Assembly: GCA_037446915.1 (NCBI GenBank)
Contig: JBBIHP010000003.1
Location: 2,123-66,122 of the forward strand
Reading direction: 5' to 3'
Length of the DNA: 64,000 nt
From: Ignavibacteria bacterium
Lineage (GTDB): Bacteria; Bacteroidota; Ignavibacteria; Ignavibacteriales; Melioribacteraceae
Positions 689-22,176 of the stretch are shown in pieces. Below the pieces are notes generated by a model. It did no database searches, was not told the DNA's origin, and was given only the letters and a program-made list of their open reading frames with translations. Numbering within the stretch: the first letter of the stretch is position 1; every line of letters begins with the position of its first letter. A program made the position numbers and the translations under genes.

Positions 689-3271
689 TTACTTCAACCC
701 CGCCGAATGTATAGCGTTAAATAATAATTTGAAAGTTCCAAAAGTCCAGTGTCTGTTCTGCACTTTGAATCCGAACAAAATAACATGACCGTTTTTTTGT
801 TTAACATCTACAACAGCGGCTCGCTTAAATAAATAATCCTCGCCAAGTAAAAATCCCGATTTCAACAATTCCTTGTCCGGAAAACGAACAACAACACTCC
901 TATCAAATTTACCGAATGGAGTTGTGGTTGCAAATGCAATCTTATCGCTCACATAACCAAGACTCTCCTCTTCCATTCCGTAACCGATTGGTTGAGTGTT
1001 ATCAACATTTATCCGTAACAATGAACCGGGACAGAAGAAATCATCATTCCTCAAATTCTTCAATGTATTATTAACCCTAAGTCCCAGATCCTCAATTGCG
1101 AAATTGCATGCCTGACCAATTGTAAGAAGGTAGCCTCCATCCTTCTCAACAAAATTTTTCAGGTTCTCTAATCCAATCTTACCAAGTCCGCTGTCATATT
1201 CAGCCGGTCTAGGTCTTGAAAATCTTGCAGCATCACCGCTCGGTTTACCACTCTTAATCAAGTCCCCATTCATGTCAGGAATTATAATTACATCAAATTT
1301 CTTTTTAAGATTTTTGTCCTTGAAATCTTTGTTGTGCATAGTAACAAAGTTAAACTCATAATTCTCCAAAGCTAATCTCGTCCATCCTTCGTCCATATTA
1401 GCAGTCCATGGCTGATAAAGCCCAACTTTAAGTTTCTTAATCTCCTTTATCTTTTCCTTTTCAATCTGGTCTGCAACATCAAATTGAAGATGAAGATCTT
1501 CCGCCGCTTTCTTAATTATATCTTTGGATTTGAGATTGGCATCAACAAAAACTGATCCCTGGTTATATGTTTTGCTGTTTATTACAATTTTTTCTGTGTT
1601 CCAATAAACAGGAATGTTTGCTTTATGAAGTCTATTTATTAAAGTCGAATTTACATTCAATCCAGATTTTGCAACATAATATTCACCTGAATTTTCATTC
1701 ACCGAACCTTGCTGATATTTTGCATCGCTTAATTTTATAGAAGCAACCTCAAACGGTTTATCAACCTGAAAACTTTTTACTCCCATTAAATACGGCAATG
1801 TCCAGCCGGCAACATCATAAGGAACAATTGGAGATTCAGTGCGTGATTTTCTTAAATCAGGATAACTCTGTTCTTCCATCAAATCTTTTGCATATCGACC
1901 GTTTGGCTGAGCCAGATAAACTATATAACTGTTAGCGGGATAAATAATATTATCAACAATAAATTCTTTCTCGCTAAAGTTTACTTCAACTGCTCCCATC
2001 TGAAGTATCTCGATCATTTTAGAAGTTGTAACGGGATCATTCTGATCTCGTGGAATTACATAAGCAAATGGCTTTTCATTCTTCCCTTTTTCAATAGCTT
2101 CTTTAGTCATTCTATAATAGTTACTCAAAATTTCATTTTTGTGTTGAGAAGAAATTTTTATTAAAGCTTCAGTTAATGCGAGTTCATAGTTTACAATATC
2201 GCGCAGCCGCCACCAACCACCACGCCATGGATTTGGGTAATTGGTTCTTATATCATATGTAGTAATTTCGCTGGTTGCTCTTACTTCCGAAGGATCAATA
2301 AAAACAGGACTTGCGACATTAACGCTTGCCATTTCAGATAAAAGTGAAATTTGATTATGCCACATTCCGCAATCGCTTGCTGGACCTTCCCACCAACCTT
2401 CAAAAAGTGCATGACTAATAACTCCGTTGTAACCTTGTTGTTCGAGATCGAGCGCGGTGTAGCTTCCAATTAATCCGGCCCATCGCCAGATAAGAGGATT
2501 TACATTAGGATTAATAGGATCTTTATACGGCACTACAAATAAACGAGCACCGTTGTTTCCCATCTGATGCTCATCCAGCCAGATTTGCGGAAGCCAATCG
2601 TGGAATGCAACCTTAACAACATTTTTAGTTTCCTGAAGATTGAACATAAACCAGTCGCGGTTATTATCGTGTCCGGCATAAGTCTGATAAAGCCATGGCA
2701 TTTGTGCGCCGTCGTATTCGGTGTTTAATGTTTTGTTGTACCAGTCAACAACCATCGTTGTACCATCAGGATTAATTGACGGCATCAGAATAAAAATGAC
2801 GTCGCTCAAGGAATTAATAACTTCCTGCGAAGCTTTGCCAGTTATTAAATTGTAAGCAAGCTCCATCGACATTTGTGCTGAAGCAATTTCCGTTGAGTGA
2901 ATATTACAGGTAACCAGCACAATTGTCTTTCCTTCTTTAACAAGTGGTTCGGCTTCTGCATCGGAGGTTATACGCGGATCGGAAAGTTTTTTTATTATGT
3001 CCCGGTATTTATCGACATTGCGGATATTTTCCTCGGAGCTAATAACAGCCATGAACATATCGCGCTTCTGCGAGGTCTTGCCGATTTCCTGATAAATAAT
3101 TTGTTTGGAAAATTCAGCAAGGTGTTTAAAATATTTTTGAATGGTTTCGTAATCAGCAATTTTATAGTCAGCACCAACTTTGTATCCTAAGAATTCCTCG
3201 GGTGATTTTAATTGCTGTGAAAAAATAAATGATGAAACAGTAAGAAGAAGTATTAGAGAACGTTTTAACAT
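689..3271 (-). CDS. Secreted M14-family zinc metallocarboxypeptidase-like protein
   Basis: 860 aa with a signal peptide. The M14 motifs appear in order: NIHSTEIAS (HxxE zinc ligands), SINPDG, HDNNRDW, and LDEHQMG (third zinc His). Confidence 0.85.
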   Translation of the reverse strand: MLKRSLILLLTVSSFIFSQQLKSPEEFLGYKVGADYKIADYETIQKYFKHLAEFSKQIIYQEIGKTSQKRDMFMAVISSEENIRNVDKYRDIIKKLSDPRITSDAEAEPLVKEGKTIVLVTCNIHSTEIASAQMSMELAYNLITGKASQEVINSLSDVIFILMPSINPDGTTMVVDWYNKTLNTEYDGAQMPWLYQTYAGHDNNRDWFMFNLQETKNVVKVAFHDWLPQIWLDEHQMGNNGARLFVVPYKDPINPNVNPLIWRWAGLIGSYTALDLEQQGYNGVISHALFEGWWEGPASDCGMWHNQISLLSEMASVNVASPVFIDPSEVRATSEITTYDIRTNYPNPWRGGWWRLRDIVNYELALTEALIKISSQHKNEILSNYYRMTKEAIEKGKNEKPFAYVIPRDQNDPVTTSKMIEILQMGAVEVNFSEKEFIVDNIIYPANSYIVYLAQPNGRYAKDLMEEQSYPDLRKSRTESPIVPYDVAGWTLPYLMGVKSFQVDKPFEVASIKLSDAKYQQGSVNENSGEYYVAKSGLNVNSTLINRLHKANIPVYWNTEKIVINSKTYNQGSVFVDANLKSKDIIKKAAEDLHLQFDVADQIEKEKIKEIKKLKVGLYQPWTANMDEGWTRLALENYEFNFVTMHNKDFKDKNLKKKFDVIIIPDMNGDLIKSGKPSGDAARFSRPRPAEYDSGLGKIGLENLKNFVEKDGGYLLTIGQACNFAIEDLGLRVNNTLKNLRNDDFFCPGSLLRINVDNTQPIGYGMEEESLGYVSDKIAFATTTPFGKFDRSVVVRFPDKELLKSGFLLGEDYLFKRAAVVDVKQKNGHVILFGFKVQNRHWTFGTFKLLFNAIHSAGLK

Positions 3272-3377
3272 ATAATACCTCGATGAAGTTTTTTAGATTT
3301 ATTCGTGCTCAAATTATGAAATCAATTAATGAAAGGACACAAATATTTTTGAAAAGAATATTTAAGAGAAGTAATAA

Positions 3378-4010
3378 CTATAAGAGTTCAAGAATGGAAT
3401 CGCATACTTGAACACCGCACTCAAGTAATACTTTTTTATTCTGGTGTCCGCTTGCCAGCAAGATACAATCAGCACCTATTTCCGATGCGACTTCAAAATC
3501 GTGAACGGTATCGCCAATCAAAAGTGTTTCCCCTTTACCATTGCCAAGCCGCTTCATCAAATCTTTACCGAGGTGAAGTTTACTTGCAGCATAAATATTA
3601 TCGAGTCCAACAACATGTGTAAAATATTTTTTCAACCCGTAATGTTCAACAAGTTCATCCAGTGTGTGCTGTGAGTATGCTGAAAGTATCGATTGACCAA
3701 TTGCTGCGTTCTCAATTTTATTGAGTAGAACCGTAACACCTTTATAAAGATTACACTCAAATTTTCTGCACTCATATTCATCCATCCATATTTTACCCAG
3801 CTTCTCAAAAGATTCCTTTTCAAAATTGAAACCGAGTGCAGCATAATAATTTTTTACAGGGATAGTGAATACCTCCCGGTATCTATTTATGTCAATTTCT
3901 GGAATCGAGCGGGATTGTGCGAGCCAGTTGATTAACTCAACACATAACTCAACATCATTAAGAATTGTCCCGTTCCAGTCCCAGATTATATGTTTGTATT
4001 TTTCTATCAT
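3378..4010 (-). CDS. HAD-superfamily hydrolase (phosphatase-like)
   Basis: 210 aa. It has an N-terminal HAD motif I variant (IIWDWNGTILND) and a C-terminal GDTVHDFEVA motif IV-like acidic patch, which is the typical HAD-IA layout. Confidence 0.75.
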   Translation of the reverse strand: MIEKYKHIIWDWNGTILNDVELCVELINWLAQSRSIPEIDINRYREVFTIPVKNYYAALGFNFEKESFEKLGKIWMDEYECRKFECNLYKGVTVLLNKIENAAIGQSILSAYSQHTLDELVEHYGLKKYFTHVVGLDNIYAASKLHLGKDLMKRLGNGKGETLLIGDTVHDFEVASEIGADCILLASGHQNKKVLLECGVQVCDSILELL

Positions 4011-4326
4011 GGGTGCAAATTTATTGGATAATTTTTAATCGGCAAAATATTATTTCATAAATAACAAATAATGTAAAAGAATTTAGAAACATTTATATAA
4101 ACCCAAACAACCCTTTTTTGAAAGTTTTAAAAATTGTTTTTGCACCAAAGATATCAATTCGATAAGTTACCTCCGGTTGCTATTCATTTTCCCTATTACA
4201 ATAACGTAGTTCATAACAAAGTTAATTGATTATTTCTTTCCACATTTGAAGGGGATTCTGTAGTGGGCATAATACCATCAGGATTTCTATTCTTCTTAAC
4301 TCCAATTAACATATATTATAAGTTGA

Positions 4327-4545
4327 GAATCACATAAGAACAAGAATAATTTTCGGTTTGCTCTTTATCTTTTTGTCATTGCTGAATTTAGTTGCCCGGG
4401 AAAAATCTATTCTGGGGATCTGTCTACAATAAAATTACCTATGCCAGATCACAGTCACAACCCGATATTGTCGGGCGGAATTTACTTCAATCAGTTGTGA
4501 GACGGAGGGTTTGTACAAACACAAAAGATGATTTTCCTCCGTTAA
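4327..4545 (+). pseudogene. Decayed remnant of a T9SS C-terminal sorting domain (gene fragment)
   Basis: One frame reads ...PGKIYSGDLSTIKLP..ILSGGIYFNQL*DGGFVQTQKMIFLR*. This matches the terminal strands of T9SS CTDs (compare the neighbour's ...LYSGIYFYRLTAGNNSQTKKMVYLK), but it carries an in-frame TGA near 4498 and no upstream ORF. Confidence 0.4.
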
Positions 4546-4570
4546 AAAAATAATTACTAAAAGGTGAACA

Positions 4571-5965
4571 ATGATAAAAATTGCGCATTTAATAATTGCC
4601 ATAAACACATTAGTTATTGCTCAAGAAAGCTATACTCTCTCCTGGACGGGAAATCATTCAGGTTACGTTAGAACAGTTGCAATAAGTTCTAATGGTTCCA
4701 AAGTTTTTTCCGGTAGTGATGATAAAACTGTAAAAGCATGGAATGCAGCTACAGGAAGTTTATTATGGTCAAGCCCGTTCGATGGAAGAGTAAACTGGAT
4801 TGATGTAAGTCTGGATGGAACTCGTGTTGTTGCAGCAAGTGCAGATAAAACAGTTAGAATGCTCGATGCAGAAACCGGTGCACAACTCTGGATAATGACC
4901 GATGTTGATGTTGTAATAGCAGCGCTCTTTTGTTCATTTGATACCCGCGTAATGATTGCAAACGAGGATAATCTGGTTAAATGTTTAAATGCAAACAACG
5001 GAAATGTAGTGTGGCTTGGTGTTCACGATTCAAACCTTAATTCCGGTATTCATTTTCTTTCGATAAGCAGTAACGGTAATTTTGCCGTTTCTGGTTCAAC
5101 TCAATATATAAAAGTATGGAATATAACAACACAATTACCGGCGTCTATTGCTTCAATTGGATCTACTGTTTCTACAGTCTATTTCAATCCTGATTACTCC
5201 AGGGTTGTTTCTGCTGATTGGAGCGGTAATGTAAGGATATGGAATGCAACAACAGGCGCACCGATTACTACTATGAATCATTCCGGGATTGTTAATGCGG
5301 CAAGATACATTCCCGATGGATCTAAAATTGTATCTATTGGTAACAACAGAATTGTAAAATTATGGGATGTTGGAACCGGACAACAATTGTGGAGTGGTAA
5401 TCATAACGATGAAGTAGTGTCGGTTACATTCAGTCCGGATGGAAGCCGTATAGCAACGGGAAGCGGTTCTGCAGAAAGTTTGATTAGATTGTGGAATACT
5501 TCTAATGGAAATCTAATATGGACAAGTCCAGTTGGTGAAGCCGGTCAGACAGTCAGCAAAATTATTTTCAGCCCTGATGGAAATAAAATTATTAACGCCA
5601 ACTTCCAGAGTAATTCAATTAAATGCTGGACAAAAGTTCCAACAAGTGTAGGGCAGCAAGGAAATATCCCGATTGAATTTTCACTTTCCCAGAATTACCC
5701 TAATCCATTTAATCCGGGAACAACAATAAAATATACAATTCCAAACGTGGAGTCGAGGCATGCCTCGACCTTACAGCATGTAACATTAAAAGTATATGAT
5801 ATTCTGGGAAGAGAAGTTGCAACGCTTGTTGATGAATACAAACTACCGGGGCTTTATAATTGCGAATTTAGAATTGAGAATGGAGAATTATACAGTGGAA
5901 TTTATTTTTATAGACTAACAGCCGGAAATAATTCACAAACAAAAAAGATGGTTTACTTGAAATAG
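4571..5965 (+). CDS. Secreted WD40-repeat beta-propeller protein with T9SS C-terminal sorting domain
   Basis: 464 aa with a signal peptide. It has repeated WD40-like units (SGSDDKTVKAWN, DKTVRMLD, GNVRIWN, IVKLWD, LIRLWN). The C-terminus is FSLSQNYPNPFNPGTTIKY...VTLKVYDILGREVATLVDE...GIYFYRL...KKMVYLK. Confidence 0.8.
   Translation: MIKIAHLIIAINTLVIAQESYTLSWTGNHSGYVRTVAISSNGSKVFSGSDDKTVKAWNAATGSLLWSSPFDGRVNWIDVSLDGTRVVAASADKTVRMLDAETGAQLWIMTDVDVVIAALFCSFDTRVMIANEDNLVKCLNANNGNVVWLGVHDSNLNSGIHFLSISSNGNFAVSGSTQYIKVWNITTQLPASIASIGSTVSTVYFNPDYSRVVSADWSGNVRIWNATTGAPITTMNHSGIVNAARYIPDGSKIVSIGNNRIVKLWDVGTGQQLWSGNHNDEVVSVTFSPDGSRIATGSGSAESLIRLWNTSNGNLIWTSPVGEAGQTVSKIIFSPDGNKIINANFQSNSIKCWTKVPTSVGQQGNIPIEFSLSQNYPNPFNPGTTIKYTIPNVESRHASTLQHVTLKVYDILGREVATLVDEYKLPGLYNCEFRIENGELYSGIYFYRLTAGNNSQTKKMVYLK
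5752..5769. repeat. 18-bp perfect palindrome GTCGAGGCATGCCTCGAC embedded in-frame in the T9SS domain
   Basis: Read directly from the sequence. It encodes part of VESRHAST, between the IKYTIP and VTLKVYD strands of the sorting domain. Confidence 0.85.
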
Positions 5966-16923: not shown

Positions 16924-17008
16924 GCACACAGATCAAACTGATTCAACAGATAAGAACTGATTTTTAAATATTTTTTTTAAATCAGTTTCATCTATTCTAT
17001 CTGTGTGC
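16924..17008 (-). other. Nested intercistronic stem-loop between arsM and arsC
   Basis: The outer 10-bp arms are GCACACAGAT (16924-16933) and ATCTGTGTGC (16999-17008). The inner 9-bp stem is AACTGATTT (16955-16963) paired with AAATCAGTT (16979-16987). The right outer arm touches the arsM stop codon. Confidence 0.6.
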
Positions 17009-17811
17009 TAAATATTTTTATAAGAAGTAACCGTAATACTGAAAATTCCTGTTTTGTTCTCTCTGAATGATCTTATTTCATCCTTTGATAGATACTGTTC
17101 CAGCACCTCATCCGGTAATTCAATTACTTTTGTTTTATTAATCACCGTATTTACAAATCCCGCATCCGCAATCAACTTAAGATATTCCTCCTGCTGGACA
17201 GCACCGGCGACACAACCGGCATACATCTCGGCAGATTTTTTCAGATTTGCCGGTAATTCTCCTTTAATCACTATGTCCGAAACGCAAAAATGTCCGCCTG
17301 GTTTAAGTATCCTGAAAATTTCTGTGAATGCTTTTTGTTTATCCGGCACAAGATTCAATACACAATTGCTTACAACTACATCAACAGTAGAACTTTCAAC
17401 CGGCATTTCTTCAATCTCGCCAAGCCTGAATTCAACATTTTTATAACCAATTTTTTGAGTGTTTCTATTAGCTTTTTCAATCATCTCTTCCGTAAAATCG
17501 AGACCGATTACTTTTCCTTTTTCACCGACTATTGCTCTTGCAACAAACACATCATTGCCGGCGCCGCTACCAAGATCTAAAACTGTATCGCCTTCTTTGA
17601 TCCCTGCATATTCCGTTGGCAGACCGCAGCCCAATCCTAAATCGGCTTCGGCTACATAACCATCAAGATTAGAATACTCATCGTTCATAATAGTATAGCC
17701 AACAATCTTATTTGAAGTGCCGCATCCACAGCCACAGCCGGATTGAGATTTTTTTGCAATTGCACCGTATTTCTCTTTTACAACTTCCTTTATTTCTTTT
17801 TCGTTTTGCAT
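17008..17811 (-). CDS. arsM: Arsenite S-adenosylmethionine methyltransferase
   Basis: 267 aa. It has an N-terminal Cys cluster (SGCGCGCGT), SAM motif I (VLDLGSGAGNDV), and conserved Cys residues in SNCVLNL and YAGCVAGA. Confidence 0.85.
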   Translation of the reverse strand: MQNEKEIKEVVKEKYGAIAKKSQSGCGCGCGTSNKIVGYTIMNDEYSNLDGYVAEADLGLGCGLPTEYAGIKEGDTVLDLGSGAGNDVFVARAIVGEKGKVIGLDFTEEMIEKANRNTQKIGYKNVEFRLGEIEEMPVESSTVDVVVSNCVLNLVPDKQKAFTEIFRILKPGGHFCVSDIVIKGELPANLKKSAEMYAGCVAGAVQQEEYLKLIADAGFVNTVINKTKVIELPDEVLEQYLSKDEIRSFRENKTGIFSITVTSYKNI

Positions 17812-18137
17812 GAGATTGCCCCCTTCTTTGTTAGATGTGAAAAAATTTTTTCCATTTCTGTTTTTGCTTTTATAAGGTTACCCGGATTAACACAGTAGCA
17901 TACTTTTGGACCGTCAATATCACCTTGAATGAGTCCAACACGTTTAAGTTCTTTAAGATGCTGCGATACTGTTGCCTGAGCAAGCGGCAGAAGATCAACA
18001 ATCTCTCCGCACATGCAGACGTTCATCTCGGTAAGTATTTTCATAATACGTAAACGCGCTGGGTGGGACAGCGCTTTTGCAACGTCAGATAGATAGATTT
18101 CGTCGGGCGTAAATTCTTCTGTTTTCGGTTTAGCCAT
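17790..18137 (-). CDS. arsR: ArsR/SmtB-family arsenic-responsive repressor
   Basis: 115 aa. It has a winged HTH (LSHPARLRIMKIL...VSQHLKELKRVGLI) and a CxC metalloid site (NVCMCGEI). Its 3' end overlaps the arsM start by 22 nt. Confidence 0.85.
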   Translation of the reverse strand: MAKPKTEEFTPDEIYLSDVAKALSHPARLRIMKILTEMNVCMCGEIVDLLPLAQATVSQHLKELKRVGLIQGDIDGPKVCYCVNPGNLIKAKTEMEKIFSHLTKKGAISCKTKKK

Positions 18138-18173: not shown

Positions 18174-18320
18174 AACAAATTATCAAAACAAGTAACAAAT
18201 AATTTTTCCTTAGAATGATTATCCTGTATTTTCAAGAGGTCTTTCATTTGACAATCGCTGTTCATTGTTTTAGATTTATCAGCAAATTTGATTAATAAAG
18301 CGGAATATTATTTTAGATTT

Positions 18321-18358
18321 TTACTAACATCATTGTTAGTAACAACCTTGTTAGTAAC
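18321..18358. promoter_or_regulatory. Three copies of a 9-10 bp motif TGTTAGTAA(C): one inverted and two direct
   Basis: The copies are TTACTAACA (18321-18329), TGTTAGTAAC (18334-18343) and TGTTAGTAAC (18349-18358). They lie 53-90 nt upstream of the R-M gene ATG, in the divergent arsR / R-M intergenic region. Confidence 0.5.
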
Positions 18359-18410
18359 CATCGTTTTAGACATTCCAACTTTTATTCAAACAAAATATAT
18401 GTGATATAAC

Positions 18411-21335
18411 ATGCCAGCACCTCAACAGATTATTGACCTTGTTAACCGCTTCGAGCGGAATTATGAATCCTATACCAATGCAAATTATAACGAAACCCAA
18501 ACACGCCGCGAATTTATAGACCCATTCTTCGAAGCGCTCGGATGGGACATTTCTAACCGACTTGGTTACGCCGAAGCTTATAAAGATGTTGTCCACGAAT
18601 ACTCTCAGAAAACTACCGACTCGGTTGAAGCGCCCGACTACCTTTTCCGTATCGGCGGAACAAGAAAATTCTTTGTTGAAGCTAAAAAACCAAACATAAA
18701 ACTTGCGGATGATATTTCCCCCGCTTTCCAGCTGCGTAGATATGCATGGACGGCCAAATTACCTTTAAGCATTCTTACCGACTTTGAGGAACTTGCTGTT
18801 TACGACTGCCGCATTAAACCGAATAAGAACGATAAACCTTCCACTGCAAGAATAAATTACTACACTTACAAAGATTATATTGACAAGTGGGACGAAATTG
18901 AATCCGTATTTTCCAAAGATGCCGTGCTTAAAGGTTCATTCGATAAATTCGCTGAATCAAAAAAAGGAAAACGCGGAACCGCCGAAGTTGATGACGAGTT
19001 CTTAAAAGAAATTGAACATTGGCGCGAATTACTCGCCAAAAATATTGCGCTCAGAAACTCCAAACTTTCCAATCGCGAACTCAATTACTCCGTTCAGAAA
19101 ATTATCGACCGTATTATTTTCCTCCGTATCTGCGAAGACCGCGGCATTGAAGAATACGGACAATTACTTAATCATCTTAACGGAACAAATGTTTATAAAC
19201 GCCTCTTACAAATCTTTACACGTGCCGATGAAAAATATAACTCCGGTCTTTTCCATTTCGAAACCGAGAAGGACCGACCTGAATCACCCGATGAAATTAC
19301 ACCCGATCTTAACATAGACGACAAAACCCTTAAAGATATTATTAGAACACTCTATTATCCCGATAGCCCTTACGAGTTCTCCGTTCTTCCCGCAGATATA
19401 CTGGGACATGTTTACGAACAGTTCCTTGGTAAAGTAATCCGTTTAACACCGGCTCACCAGGCAAAGATTGAAGAAAAACCCGAAGTTAAAAAAGCCGGCG
19501 GCGTTTATTATACGCCAACTTATATTGTCGATTATATTGTTAAGAACACACTTGGCAAATTATTGACCGATGATAAAAAACCGAACCACATTAGTAAATT
19601 AAAAATTTTAGACCCGGCTTGCGGAAGCGGTTCTTTTCTTATTGTTGCTTATCAATATCTGCTGGACTGGCATCTTAAATATTATATTAACAGTGATCCC
19701 GATAAACATGCTCAATCTAAAAATCCGCCAGTCTATTCCTCGTCTAACGGCGAATGGAAACTTACTACTTCTGAGAGAAAGCGGATTCTGCTTAATAATA
19801 TCTACGGCGTTGATATCGATCCTCAAGCTGTTGAAGTAACAAAACTCTCTCTTCTGTTAAAAGTTCTTGAAGGTGAAACCGAAGAAACTCTCTCTTCTCA
19901 ATTTAAGTTTTTTAGAGAACGGGCATTACCGGACCTTGGCAGCAATATTAAATGCGGTAACTCTCTTATTGGTCCCGATTTCTATCAGCAGACTGAACTG
20001 AATCTTATTACTGATGAAGAACGGATGCGGATTAATGTATTCGATTGGCATAAAGAATTTCCGGAAGTTTTTAATGATAGTCCTTCGGCAAGCTCAGGAC
20101 AAGGATTTGATGTTGTGATTGGAAATCCACCGTATGGTGCTACATTTACACAAAACGAAATGAATTATCTAAGGAACAAATTCACAACAACTCAAGGGGA
20201 AATAGACAGTTATACACTTTTTTTAGAAACAAGCTTAACTTTATTGAAGAGTAATGGATTTTTTTCCATGATTCTTCCCGACACATGGCTTACAAATTAT
20301 ACGACTGAGATTTTTCGAAAATGGATATTATTTAATTTTTCACTTCTTGAAATAATACATCTTAATGAGTATATATTTAATAAAGCAACTGTTGATCCAG
20401 TAATCGTTACGATGGAAAAATTAAAGCCACATACTAATCATATTGTTTCTATTAGAACTATTCCTAAAAACCATAAACTAACTTCAATAGATTCAATTAC
20501 TAACACAAACTACTTTAATCAAGAAAAGTGGTTGTCAAATCACAATGCACAGATAAAAATTTATTTAACTAACGAACTTGAAGATTTCTTTGTTAAATTG
20601 GAAAACAATAGTATTAAACTAGAAAAACTGTTAGACTATAAAGCTGGTTGTAAACCATATGAAGTTGGTAAAGGTAATCCTGCTCAAACTCGAACTATTT
20701 TAGACGAAAAACCCTTTACATCATTCAAACAATTTTCGAAAGATTGGAAAAAATTAATAAGAGGAAATGACGTAAAAAGATATTGTGTTAAAATTAAGAA
20801 ACCTGAATGGATAAATTATGGTGACTGGCTCGCCGCACCACGTGATCCTAATATTTTTCAAGGTGAGAGATTACTAGTGCAAGCCATCCGAAATCCATCG
20901 TTAAAAAATAGAATTATTGTATCATTTGAAAATGAAGAGCTTATTTCACGCATTAATGTTTATACTCTATTAAAAAAGGATGGTGTTGATGTTCATTATT
21001 ATTATTTACTAGGCATTTTAAACAGTGCATTAATGAACTGGTTTCTCAAACGAAATTATGGGCTGCATACATATATTATTACCGGATTATTACAGTTACC
21101 TATTAGAATAATTAACTTCTCAGCTAAAAAAGAAAAAGAAATACATGACGCCATAGTACACTCGGCATCAAAAATAATTAATCTGAATAAAAGCTTAATC
21201 AAGGCTAACACCCCCCAAGAAAAAGAATCCCTTCAGCGGCAGATAGACGCAACGGATAGAGAGATAGACCGGCTTGTTTATGAGTTATACGGATTAACAG
21301 AAGAAGAAATAAAAATTGTAGAATCCATATCGTAG
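18411..21335 (+). CDS. Type IIG restriction-modification enzyme (fused PD-(D/E)xK nuclease + N6-adenine DNA methyltransferase + target-recognition domain)
   Basis: 974 aa. The N-terminus is an HsdR_N-like nuclease with NETQTRREFIDPFFEALGWD and PD76...E90-A-K92. It has SAM motif I (LDPACGSGSFL) and motif IV (VVIGNPPYG). The C-terminal tail (DREIDRLVYELYGLTEEEIKIVE) is typical of the Eco57I/MmeI-like family. Confidence 0.85.
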   Translation: MPAPQQIIDLVNRFERNYESYTNANYNETQTRREFIDPFFEALGWDISNRLGYAEAYKDVVHEYSQKTTDSVEAPDYLFRIGGTRKFFVEAKKPNIKLADDISPAFQLRRYAWTAKLPLSILTDFEELAVYDCRIKPNKNDKPSTARINYYTYKDYIDKWDEIESVFSKDAVLKGSFDKFAESKKGKRGTAEVDDEFLKEIEHWRELLAKNIALRNSKLSNRELNYSVQKIIDRIIFLRICEDRGIEEYGQLLNHLNGTNVYKRLLQIFTRADEKYNSGLFHFETEKDRPESPDEITPDLNIDDKTLKDIIRTLYYPDSPYEFSVLPADILGHVYEQFLGKVIRLTPAHQAKIEEKPEVKKAGGVYYTPTYIVDYIVKNTLGKLLTDDKKPNHISKLKILDPACGSGSFLIVAYQYLLDWHLKYYINSDPDKHAQSKNPPVYSSSNGEWKLTTSERKRILLNNIYGVDIDPQAVEVTKLSLLLKVLEGETEETLSSQFKFFRERALPDLGSNIKCGNSLIGPDFYQQTELNLITDEERMRINVFDWHKEFPEVFNDSPSASSGQGFDVVIGNPPYGATFTQNEMNYLRNKFTTTQGEIDSYTLFLETSLTLLKSNGFFSMILPDTWLTNYTTEIFRKWILFNFSLLEIIHLNEYIFNKATVDPVIVTMEKLKPHTNHIVSIRTIPKNHKLTSIDSITNTNYFNQEKWLSNHNAQIKIYLTNELEDFFVKLENNSIKLEKLLDYKAGCKPYEVGKGNPAQTRTILDEKPFTSFKQFSKDWKKLIRGNDVKRYCVKIKKPEWINYGDWLAAPRDPNIFQGERLLVQAIRNPSLKNRIIVSFENEELISRINVYTLLKKDGVDVHYYYLLGILNSALMNWFLKRNYGLHTYIITGLLQLPIRIINFSAKKEKEIHDAIVHSASKIINLNKSLIKANTPQEKESLQRQIDATDREIDRLVYELYGLTEEEIKIVESIS

Positions 21336-21357
21336 GGAACGGTCTCAGACCGTTCCC
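21332..21357 (+). repeat. REP-like element: GTAG head + perfect palindrome GGGAACGGTCT-C-AGACCGTTCCC
   Basis: 11-bp perfect arms with a 1-nt centre. The GTAG overlaps the TAG stop codon of the R-M gene (21333-21335). Confidence 0.7.
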
Positions 21358-21425
21358 AATCCGGTATCAAACCGTTCCCAATCCGGTATCAGACCGTTCC
21401 CAATCCGGTATCAAACCATTCCCCA
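21349..21425 (+). repeat. 22-bp tandem repeat ACCGTTCCCAATCCGGTATCA[A/G], three full copies plus a degenerate partial copy
   Basis: The units are 21349-21370, 21371-21392 and 21393-21414, then ACCATTCCCCATT. Each unit starts with the right half-site of the adjacent REP palindrome. Confidence 0.9.
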
Positions 21426-21470
21426 TTTATTTAATATTTGTTTATTTTTTGTCAACCTCATTTATATTTT

Positions 21471-21965
21471 ATGAATAATTCATTACCCAATCGTAAACGG
21501 AACCGGCTGCAGAATTTTGATTATTCATCTACCGGTTATTATTTCATTACCATTTGCGTTAAGAACAAGAAAAAAATATTCGGCAATATTATCAACGGTA
21601 AAATTTCTCTAAATTTATTCGGTATAATTACCGAAGAATGCTGGAACGATTTACCAAATCATTACAATTGCTCTATCGATTATTATTCAATTATGCCCGA
21701 CCATTTTCATGGAATTCTGATAATTGAAAAATTACAAGACAAAAAAAATTATTCTCTCTCCGAAATCATTCGCGGATTTAAAACATTTTCATCAAAAAGG
21801 ATTAATCTGGAAATTAAAAACAATAACCGTTTTCAATGGCAGAAATCTTTCTACGATCGCATTATTCGTAATGAGAAAGAACTTTACCAAATTAGAAAAT
21901 ATATCGAACAAAACCCCTTGAAATGGGAATTATCGCAAGAACTGCCGGAAAACCTTGATATCTAA
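21471..21965 (+). CDS. REP-associated tyrosine transposase (RAYT; IS200/IS605-like Y1 HUH enzyme)
   Basis: 164 aa from the internal ATG (the track ORF starts at a TTG at 21438). It has the HUH motif PDHFHGILI, a C-terminal WQKSFYDRIIRNEKELYQIRKYIEQNP block and an N-terminal RKRNRL...YYFITI. No TnpB or other IS genes are present. It is flanked by GTAG palindromes. Confidence 0.8.
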   Translation: MNNSLPNRKRNRLQNFDYSSTGYYFITICVKNKKKIFGNIINGKISLNLFGIITEECWNDLPNHYNCSIDYYSIMPDHFHGILIIEKLQDKKNYSLSEIIRGFKTFSSKRINLEIKNNNRFQWQKSFYDRIIRNEKELYQIRKYIEQNPLKWELSQELPENLDI

Positions 21966-21988
21966 TAATTTTTACTTTTGTGGGGAAC

Positions 21989-22019
21989 CGTAGGGAACAG
22001 TTTCAAACTGTTCCCTACG
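21989..22019 (+). repeat. REP-like element: CGTAGGGAACAGTTT-C-AAACTGTTCCCTACG
   Basis: 15-bp perfect arms with a 1-nt centre, 24 nt downstream of the RAYT stop. It has the same GTAGGGAAC.GT.T core as the upstream copy. Confidence 0.7.
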
Positions 22020-22176
22020 ATGTTGTTCCATACCAGTACCAATATTTTTAAAAACACAACCAAATAATTTTGAAACCGTCCAAACTAATTCATAATTTAG
22101 ACACAAAAGAAAGACCTTCTATTTGAAATACATGCTTTTAATTAACAGATCTAAAACACACCACATAAGGGGGCTT

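Follow-up and report, generated by a model that had tools for sequence, protein, structure and literature searches.

The 64,000-nucleotide stretch analyzed here (the window; positions 2,123 to 66,122 of contig JBBIHP010000003.1, assembly GCA_037446915.1) comes from an Ignavibacteria bacterium of the family Melioribacteraceae and carries, at positions 21471..21965, a gene for a protein related to the REP-associated Y1 transposases (RAYTs; REP, repetitive extragenic palindrome). We read this locus, with a probability of roughly 0.8, as a REPtron, that is, a single-copy domesticated RAYT gene placed between its cognate REPs, of the type known as subclass 2.4 or Group 4 and hosted by a Melioribacter-like bacterium. 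The reading is carried by the features of the enzyme, by the two hairpins that flank its gene, and by orthologous loci in which hairpins of the same family accompany the gene.

An enzyme between two hairpins

The open reading frame (ORF) lies on the plus strand between the two hairpins, starts with ATG, and encodes 164 amino acids (...IMPDHFHGILII...WQKSFYDRIIRNE...KYIEQNP...). The initial annotation had assigned it to the REP-associated class of Y1 enzymes with an HUH motif (two histidines flanking a hydrophobic residue) and had named a hidden Markov model (HMM) search as a check. This assignment is backed by the family searches and by the predicted fold. The ORF passed the Pfam Y1_Tnp model (PF01797) with 49.3 bits against a cutoff of 23, and its top NCBIfam family was REP_Tyr_transpos (NF047646; 77.0 bits, curated cutoff of 80). 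The AF2 model (pLDDT 87.9, pTM 0.81) had E. coli TnpA-REP (4ER8_A) as its top Foldseek match in the PDB, with an E value of 1.6e-7, a TM score of 0.63, and a root-mean-square deviation of 3.3 Å; the next structural matches were the IS608, ISDra2, and IS200 transposases. A phmmer search of the PDB with the single sequence did not detect 4ER8. The family profile was required, and it matched 4ER8 with an E value of 7e-4, aligning the HUH, W-Q, and Y..NP motifs.

In the window RAYT, the HUH motif corresponds to H78-F-H80, followed by W123, Q124, D129, and R133, with the catalytic Tyr144 in YIEQNP. Across alignments of 27 and 41 homologues, H78, H80, and R133 were invariant, and W123, Q124, D129, Y144, N148, and P149 were invariant or nearly so. 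The segment that reads GTAG, WQKSFYDRIIRN, aligned with WQPRFWEHAIRN of 4ER8 (W94, Q95, E100, and R104 in E. coli), such that W123, Q124, and R133 are kept and E100 is replaced by D129, a substitution already known for subclasses 2.5 and 2.7 (PMC6006769). The RAYT is thus predicted to be an intact enzyme with an HUH/Y1 fold in which all catalytic and GTAG-contacting residues are present. Compared with its closest orthologue (L126), the gene has a ratio of nonsynonymous to synonymous substitution rates (dN/dS) of 0.16, synonymous sites being saturated against the other orthologues, and it is under purifying selection. No second copy of the gene was found within the 64-kb window.

Two GTAG-footed hairpins of one family had been described as bracketing the ORF, and both are present. 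The upstream REP (GTAGGGAACGGTCTCAGACCGTTCCC, 21332..21357, plus strand) has a single 5' GTAG foot and an 11-bp stem (GGGAACGGTCT/AGACCGTTCCC) with a C at the tip. The downstream REP (CGTAGGGAACAGTTTCAAACTGTTCCCTACG, 21989..22019) is a double-foot REP, a perfect palindrome with a 15-bp stem that reads C-GTAG-GGAACAGTTT-C-AAACTGTTCC-CTAC-G. Folded as single-stranded DNA, they reached -11.6 kcal/mol (z -5.5 versus shuffled sequences) and -15.3 kcal/mol (z -7.9), respectively. The degenerate hairpin 23-mer had only two sites in 64 kb, which were the two flanking REPs, and 0 matches in 100 shuffles; the hairpins are well beyond chance. The rest of the window held no additional hairpin or half-site, and Rfam and tRNA scans of the window returned nothing.

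Two further repeat features, both absent from the initial annotation, lie next to these hairpins. The first is a 22-bp tandem array on the plus strand at 21340..21423 (3.8 copies, consensus CGGTATCAAACCGTTCCCAATC, TRF score 140, 91% matches), composed of one left arm followed by four right arms, AGACCGTTCCC, AAACCGTTCCC, AGACCGTTCCC, and AAACCATTCCC, the REP right arm starting at 21347, 21369, 21391, and 21413. The later units each retain just a CGGT/ACCG mini-stem, and the last one aligns with an inverted second REP (GGGAACGGTTTCCAACCGTTCCCTAC) found at the orthologous locus L005; the array can be read as what remains, after decay and amplification, of the second member of an earlier inverted REP pair. 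The second feature consists of the partial REP arms GTGGGGAAC (21980-21988) and GTTCCATAC (22025-22033), which are nested around the downstream REP (21980..22033) and form the outer stem in a 66-nt fold around it. They are probably remnants of an older REP copy, and comparable leftover arms were seen in L005 and L126.

Orthologous loci and the neighboring genes

A protein search returned 1337 RAYT homologues, the nearest named ones being from Melioribacter and Ignavibacteria metagenome-assembled genomes (MAGs), many of them labeled RayT. Hairpins of the same family flank the RAYT orthologues in four related Melioribacter/Ignavibacteria-like assemblies, and the position of the gene is shared in three. 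In L126, the RAYT (85% amino acid identity to that of the window) lies directly 3' of the same restriction-modification (RM) gene and has a different downstream gene. L005 (74% identity) has the order ArsR - RM - RAYT - Tricorn, as in the window, while in L001-L004 (71%) the RAYT occupies the same slot by the Tricorn gene, with just a fragment of the RM gene left. L127 (68%) is in a different neighborhood. The order RM - RAYT - Tricorn is found in L005 and L001, and its upstream RM - RAYT part in L126. In the window, the neighbors are the RM gene and, 3' of the RAYT, a gene for a Tricorn-type S41 peptidase, in agreement with the earlier statement that the enzyme has no partner tnpB.

The initial annotation took the flanking hairpins for cognate REPs and named their absence around orthologous genes as one observation that would speak against it; they were found with the orthologous gene at L005, L001, L126, L127, and L170. 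L005 carries the identical upstream REP over the RM stop codon, an inverted second REP that makes a pair resembling a REPIN (REP doublet forming a hairpin), and the identical downstream double-foot REP. Between the window and L005, the upstream and downstream REPs are identical at 29/29 and 31/31 nt, whereas nucleotide identity between the RAYT genes is just 69%, which indicates that the hairpins are constrained or homogenized. L127 has tandem REP doublets, four upstream and two downstream of the RAYT, and L170 has a REP doublet on either side. A striking local amplification was also observed beside the RAYT gene of L171 (9200-10800), where six tandem 144-bp units lie 5' of the gene and two similar ones 3'; the units examined consist of a REP and RAYT coding fragments.

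The genes of this neighborhood do not share one level of divergence. Window and L005 proteins are 95% identical for Tricorn and 96% for ArsR (dS about 0.6), versus 74% for the RAYT and 71% for the RM protein, and the dS of flanking genes ranges from 0.66 to 1.2 across the syntenic loci. The history of the RM-RAYT segment is deeper, or has run faster, than that of the genes around it, and the divergence of these two genes between conserved flanks points to a variable island or to allele replacement, as judged from sequence comparison. The same divergence would also suit an autonomous IS200-like element, in which a hairpin - tnpA - hairpin unit of ~690 bp moves as a whole and the hairpins are its left and right ends, as would the IS200-like layout of the locus and the different neighborhood of the L127 homologue. 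We nevertheless regard such an element as very improbable. The RAYT failed the IS200 equivalog model NF033573 (31.2 bits, cutoff of 55). The TnpA enzymes of IS200/IS605 elements such as IS608 and ISDra2 do share the HUH/Y1 fold and recognize subterminal hairpins on single-stranded DNA, a mode of recognition that the RAYT would share by analogy, but they have a Y...Q motif, occur in multiple copies, often with tnpB, and are mobile as a unit, none of which applies to the window RAYT. Its motif is the Y...NP of class 2, it has one copy in the window with no identical copies seen anywhere, and in three other assemblies it directly follows the same RM gene, the Tricorn gene being retained on the other side in two of these; the flanking genes have a dS of 0.66-1.2.

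Another explanation for the hairpins is that they are ordinary terminators, or stem-loops that stabilize the mRNAs of the RM and RAYT genes, and have no relation to the enzyme. The downstream REP is indeed weakly terminator-like, as it passed a loose terminator scan, and in E. coli, effects of REPs on the 3' ends of mRNAs are known (PMC3479197). We consider this explanation very improbable, as the upstream hairpin has no T tract and the GTAG...CTAC palindrome accompanies RAYT homologues across phyla, even within their ORFs (see below). Moreover, in L001 a DUF559 gene separates the RAYT from the RM fragment, and it is next to the RAYT, not the RM gene, that the hairpin is retained.

The RM gene upstream (18411..21335, plus strand) encodes a single-polypeptide type IIG restriction-modification enzyme of 974 amino acids with matches to the Pfam families HSDR_N, N6_Mtase, Eco57I, and TaqI_C. 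That the upstream hairpin supplies its stop codon holds true: the TAG at 21333-21335 lies within the GTAG foot of the upstream REP. It had further been proposed that REP insertion shaped the 3' end of the gene, but this was overstated. The window protein ends in ...IVESIS* and that of L005 in ...IVESTS*, with the stop in the same REP; those of L126 (...IVESAK*) and L001 (...IVESS*) end with a TAA of their own. The relatives thus terminate 1-3 residues past a shared ...IVES, and the REP contributes just the TAG and the third base of the terminal Ser codon. The supply of TAG stops by GTAG REP termini is moreover stated to be frequent by Di Nocera 2013 (PMC3733652). A GTAG foot also provides the stop of the RAYT itself in L081, L117, and L170, and in L170 that of the upstream PhoU gene as well. 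In L126, the RM gene is broken up into two ORFs (2311-5420), and in L001 what is left of it is a 301-amino-acid TaqI_C fragment (1-1117), with the DUF559 gene inserted after it (1357-1758). As the adjoining RAYT is intact in both, the defense gene decays faster than the RAYT.

Other observations concern the sequences around these genes. Just 5' of the RM start, at 18317-18369, is a 15-bp repeat with inverted copies (TTACTAAC / GTTAGTAAC), kept in L005 and absent from L126, that might serve as the operator of either the RM gene or the divergent ArsR-like gene. Also 5' of the RM gene, on the minus strand at 17008-18137, are genes for an ArsM-like S-adenosylmethionine (SAM) methyltransferase and an ArsR-family regulator, both present in L005 and L126. 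On the other side, the ~135 nt from the downstream REP to the Tricorn start codon (22040-22176) are 94-96% identical among the window, L005, and L001, the adjoining Tricorn gene having a dS of 0.66-1.2. This stretch had no Rfam match and no covariation (three sequences); a promoter/leader and a small RNA are both possible.

Relation to known REP systems

Subclass 2.4 of the TnpA-Y1 enzymes (Quentin, Siguier, Chandler & Fichant 2018, PMC6006769) is the same as RAYT Group 4 (Bertels 2017, PMC5581495). Its members are characterized by the motifs NH[IFV]H / WQ / YIxNNP, the lack of a tail domain, REPs of the 'long' and 'double-foot' types, and in-frame REPs inside the gene, and they occur in Cyanobacteria, Bacteroidetes, and various other phyla (PMC6006769), as well as in Chlorobia and Caldilineae (PMC5581495). 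Like them, the window RAYT has the WQ and Y...NP motifs, lacks a C-terminal tail domain, and has a low gene copy number (one in 64 kb). Its REPs begin with GTAGGG, one being a double-foot GTAG...CTAC palindrome, and are built as the subclass 2.4 REPs tabulated in PMC6006769, such as GTAGGGACAGACTTTATGTCTGTCC. Unlike subclass 2.4, the window RAYT and its closest orthologues lack the internal REP (HGILIIEKLQDKKNYSLSE), which is why the protein is short (164 amino acids versus a subclass median of 194). Homologues that are 50-58% identical read NHVH / WQ / YI[LIV]NNP. Membership was assigned through motifs and relatives rather than with the HMMs of the authors, and the window RAYT is a slightly atypical member or a sister of subclass 2.4.

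The initial annotation had stated that no characterized REP/RAYT system is known in this lineage. As a claim of novelty this does not stand, as subclass 2.4 / Group 4 systems with the same REP architecture have been described computationally in Bacteroidetes, Chlorobia, and other phyla (PMC6006769, PMC5581495). Melioribacter-like Ignavibacteriota are not among the hosts in the supplementary files of PMC6006769, nor does the window REP sequence appear in the supplementary tables of PMC6006769 and PMC3733652. A literature search for the REP sequence returned unrelated PCR primers only, and we found no paper naming Ignavibacteriota as RAYT/REP hosts.

The comparison with E. coli TnpA-REP (4ER8; subclass 2.2, Group 2) revealed the same fold, the same HUH and Tyr motifs, and the same W-Q...R segment contacting GTAG, with ~20% sequence identity. 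As in the E. coli REPtron, the gene, in single copy within the window, lies between GTAG-footed hairpins. The stems of E. coli REPs are long and bulged, and hundreds of these REPs are present as bacterial interspersed mosaic elements (BIMEs), whereas the window stems are perfect, 11-15 bp long, and have no dispersed copies in ~135 kb. By analogy with TnpA-REP (Ton-Hoang 2012, Messing 2012), the RAYT would bind the folded hairpin on single-stranded DNA, for example on the lagging-strand template, and the GTAG foot would be read through its W-Q...D-R..R segment. Tyr144 would then cleave nearby, form a 5'-phosphotyrosine link, and rejoin the DNA, so that REPs would be copied, deleted, or rearranged. 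In the window, the 22-bp array and the leftover half-arms resemble scars left by repeated events of this kind or by slippage of replication at the hairpins. The 71-bp doublet array of L127, a 103-bp array in L165, and the 144-bp array with RAYT fragments in L171 likewise look like products of either process.

Several points weigh against reading the locus as a REPtron of subclass 2.4. The NCBIfam score for REP_Tyr_transpos is 3 bits short of the curated cutoff, the window RAYT reads DHFH and YIEQNP where the subclass consensus is NH[IFV]H and YIxNNP, and the enzymes of subclass 2.4 are known from computation, none having been characterized biochemically. As the RM-RAYT segment is more diverged than its flanks, strictly vertical descent is not certain. 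Finally, no REP was found away from the RAYT flanks in the 64-kb window plus ~70 kb of L001, L005, L126, L127, and L170 (~135 kb in total), which leaves a mobilizing role without a visible product in this lineage. In a REP-rich genome such as that of E. coli, several copies would be expected in ~135 kb. One possible exception is an intergenic REPIN-like doublet (GTAGGGAACGGTCTATGACCATTCC - 10 nt - GGGAACAGTCACAAACTGTTCCCTAC) at 835-905 of L091, a MAG labeled Bacteroidetes. A truncated RAYT of another type, whose internal palindrome also differs, is located 3.4 kb away, and the doublet is the sole hint of REP dispersal in the FCB (Fibrobacteres-Chlorobi-Bacteroidetes) group.

The hairpin scan of a genome collection had no Ignavibacteriota among the matches listed (at least 120 stretches), and a metagenome scan for the GGTCT.AGACC variant returned 39 loci, just one of which (L144) was a Melioribacter-type RAYT locus. 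We also considered whether low-GC metagenome matches were dispersed Ignavibacteria copies. This idea was dropped, as the trpS gene beside the L138 REP is most similar to that of Omnitrophota. REPs appear to be few in this lineage, and a genome-wide population is unproven; the dozens of intergenic copies predicted in the initial annotation find no support in the ~135 kb covered. The 16-mers flanking Group 4 genes have about 14 genome-wide occurrences (Bertels 2017, PMC5581495), which would fit the pattern seen here.

The scarcity of copies also bears on the possibility that the locus is a relic, in which the RAYT is kept for another host function or is drifting, the hairpins are mere leftovers in its flanks, and no REP population is maintained. 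The lack of any extra REP in the ~135 kb, the decay of the upstream second REP to half-units, and the low genome-wide counts reported for Group 4 are all in line with such a relic, which we consider unlikely, though less so than the IS200-like or terminator explanations. A drifting gene is difficult to reconcile with a dN/dS of 0.16 and with every catalytic residue being intact, and REPs that are identical between genomes whose neighboring genes have a dS of 0.66 argue for continuing constraint or turnover. It should be added that a density of one copy per 250 kb would equally yield zero in this sample.

A palindrome shared across phyla

The window hairpins are a local variant of a 29-bp palindrome, GTAGGGAACGGTTT-N-AAACCGTTCCCTAC, that was recovered well outside the Ignavibacteriota. 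Among the matches listed (L006-L125), to which the counts of this paragraph refer, the carriers belong to about ten phyla and comprise both MAGs and complete chromosomes. They include Omnitrophota, Desulfobacterota, Goldiibacteriota, Patescibacteria, Spirochaetota, and Planctomycetota, several with many sites per genome; the 5.2-Mb chromosome of a Smithellaceae member has at least 8. The form GGGAACGGTTT-N-AAACCGTTCCC was present at 90 of the 127 sites, and 75 of 127 were double-footed, with GTA...TAC on both sides. Three stem positions had been left free in the search pattern, and pairing was perfect at 93/127 sites. Relative to the common form, the differences in the two window REPs are themselves compensated (G-C to A-T and T-A to C-G). 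Since the free stem positions pair and the changes are compensated, it is the structure that is selected, not just the sequence. A RAYT homologue was present in only ~10 of the 120 stretches. The palindrome was also considered as a CRISPR repeat; this was rejected, as the sites are single and do not form regularly spaced arrays with unique spacers.

Eight stretches (L008, L012, L040, L053, L077, L081, L083, and L117) have one palindrome in frame within the RAYT ORF itself, where its translation is (V)GNG[LF]KPFPT and its position a few to ~15 residues past the HUH motif, and several of these genes have a second palindrome at or over the RAYT stop codon. VGNGLKPFPT was found at the same alignment position in the homologues P0036, P0043, P0060, and P0105. 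The homologues with an in-frame REP have 50-58% identity to the window RAYT. Among themselves, the RAYTs of the in-gene carriers are 56-70% identical, and their internal palindrome is invariant save for the loop base and, in one gene, one foot base. A palindrome that is unchanged between proteins this divergent implies that even its synonymous sites are frozen.

Residence inside coding sequence may not be limited to RAYT genes. Double-foot copies in other phyla fell within open frames of at least 150 codons in 31 of 65 cases (up to 928 codons), which suggests that in-frame residence of REPs in host genes is frequent; for random positions, the share was 85%. Loci with double-foot copies inside long open frames include L010, L013, L057, L059, L101, L103, and L124, among others. 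In-gene REPs have been published for subclass 2.4; for the identity of a REP sequence across phyla, we found no description in the literature. One tentative explanation, which we hold to be doubtful at present, is that a RAYT lineage spreads horizontally and harbors, within its coding sequence, a seed copy of the substrate on which it acts; the Melioribacter-type locus would then be a settled derivative from which the internal copy was lost. If true, horizontal RAYT spread with a built-in substrate would contradict the usual view that REPIN-RAYT pairs are strictly vertical and lineage-specific.

Taken alone, the window locus changes little, because its architecture, the overlap with a stop codon, and intragenic REPs have all been published. 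It does extend the hosts of subclass 2.4 to a Melioribacter-like lineage of Ignavibacteriota, and it offers a compact test case, as a 164-amino-acid enzyme and perfect hairpins of 11-15 bp would lend themselves to initial biochemical work on these RAYTs. A dedicated study could be more worthwhile for the REP conserved across phyla, with the frozen synonymous positions of its in-gene copy.

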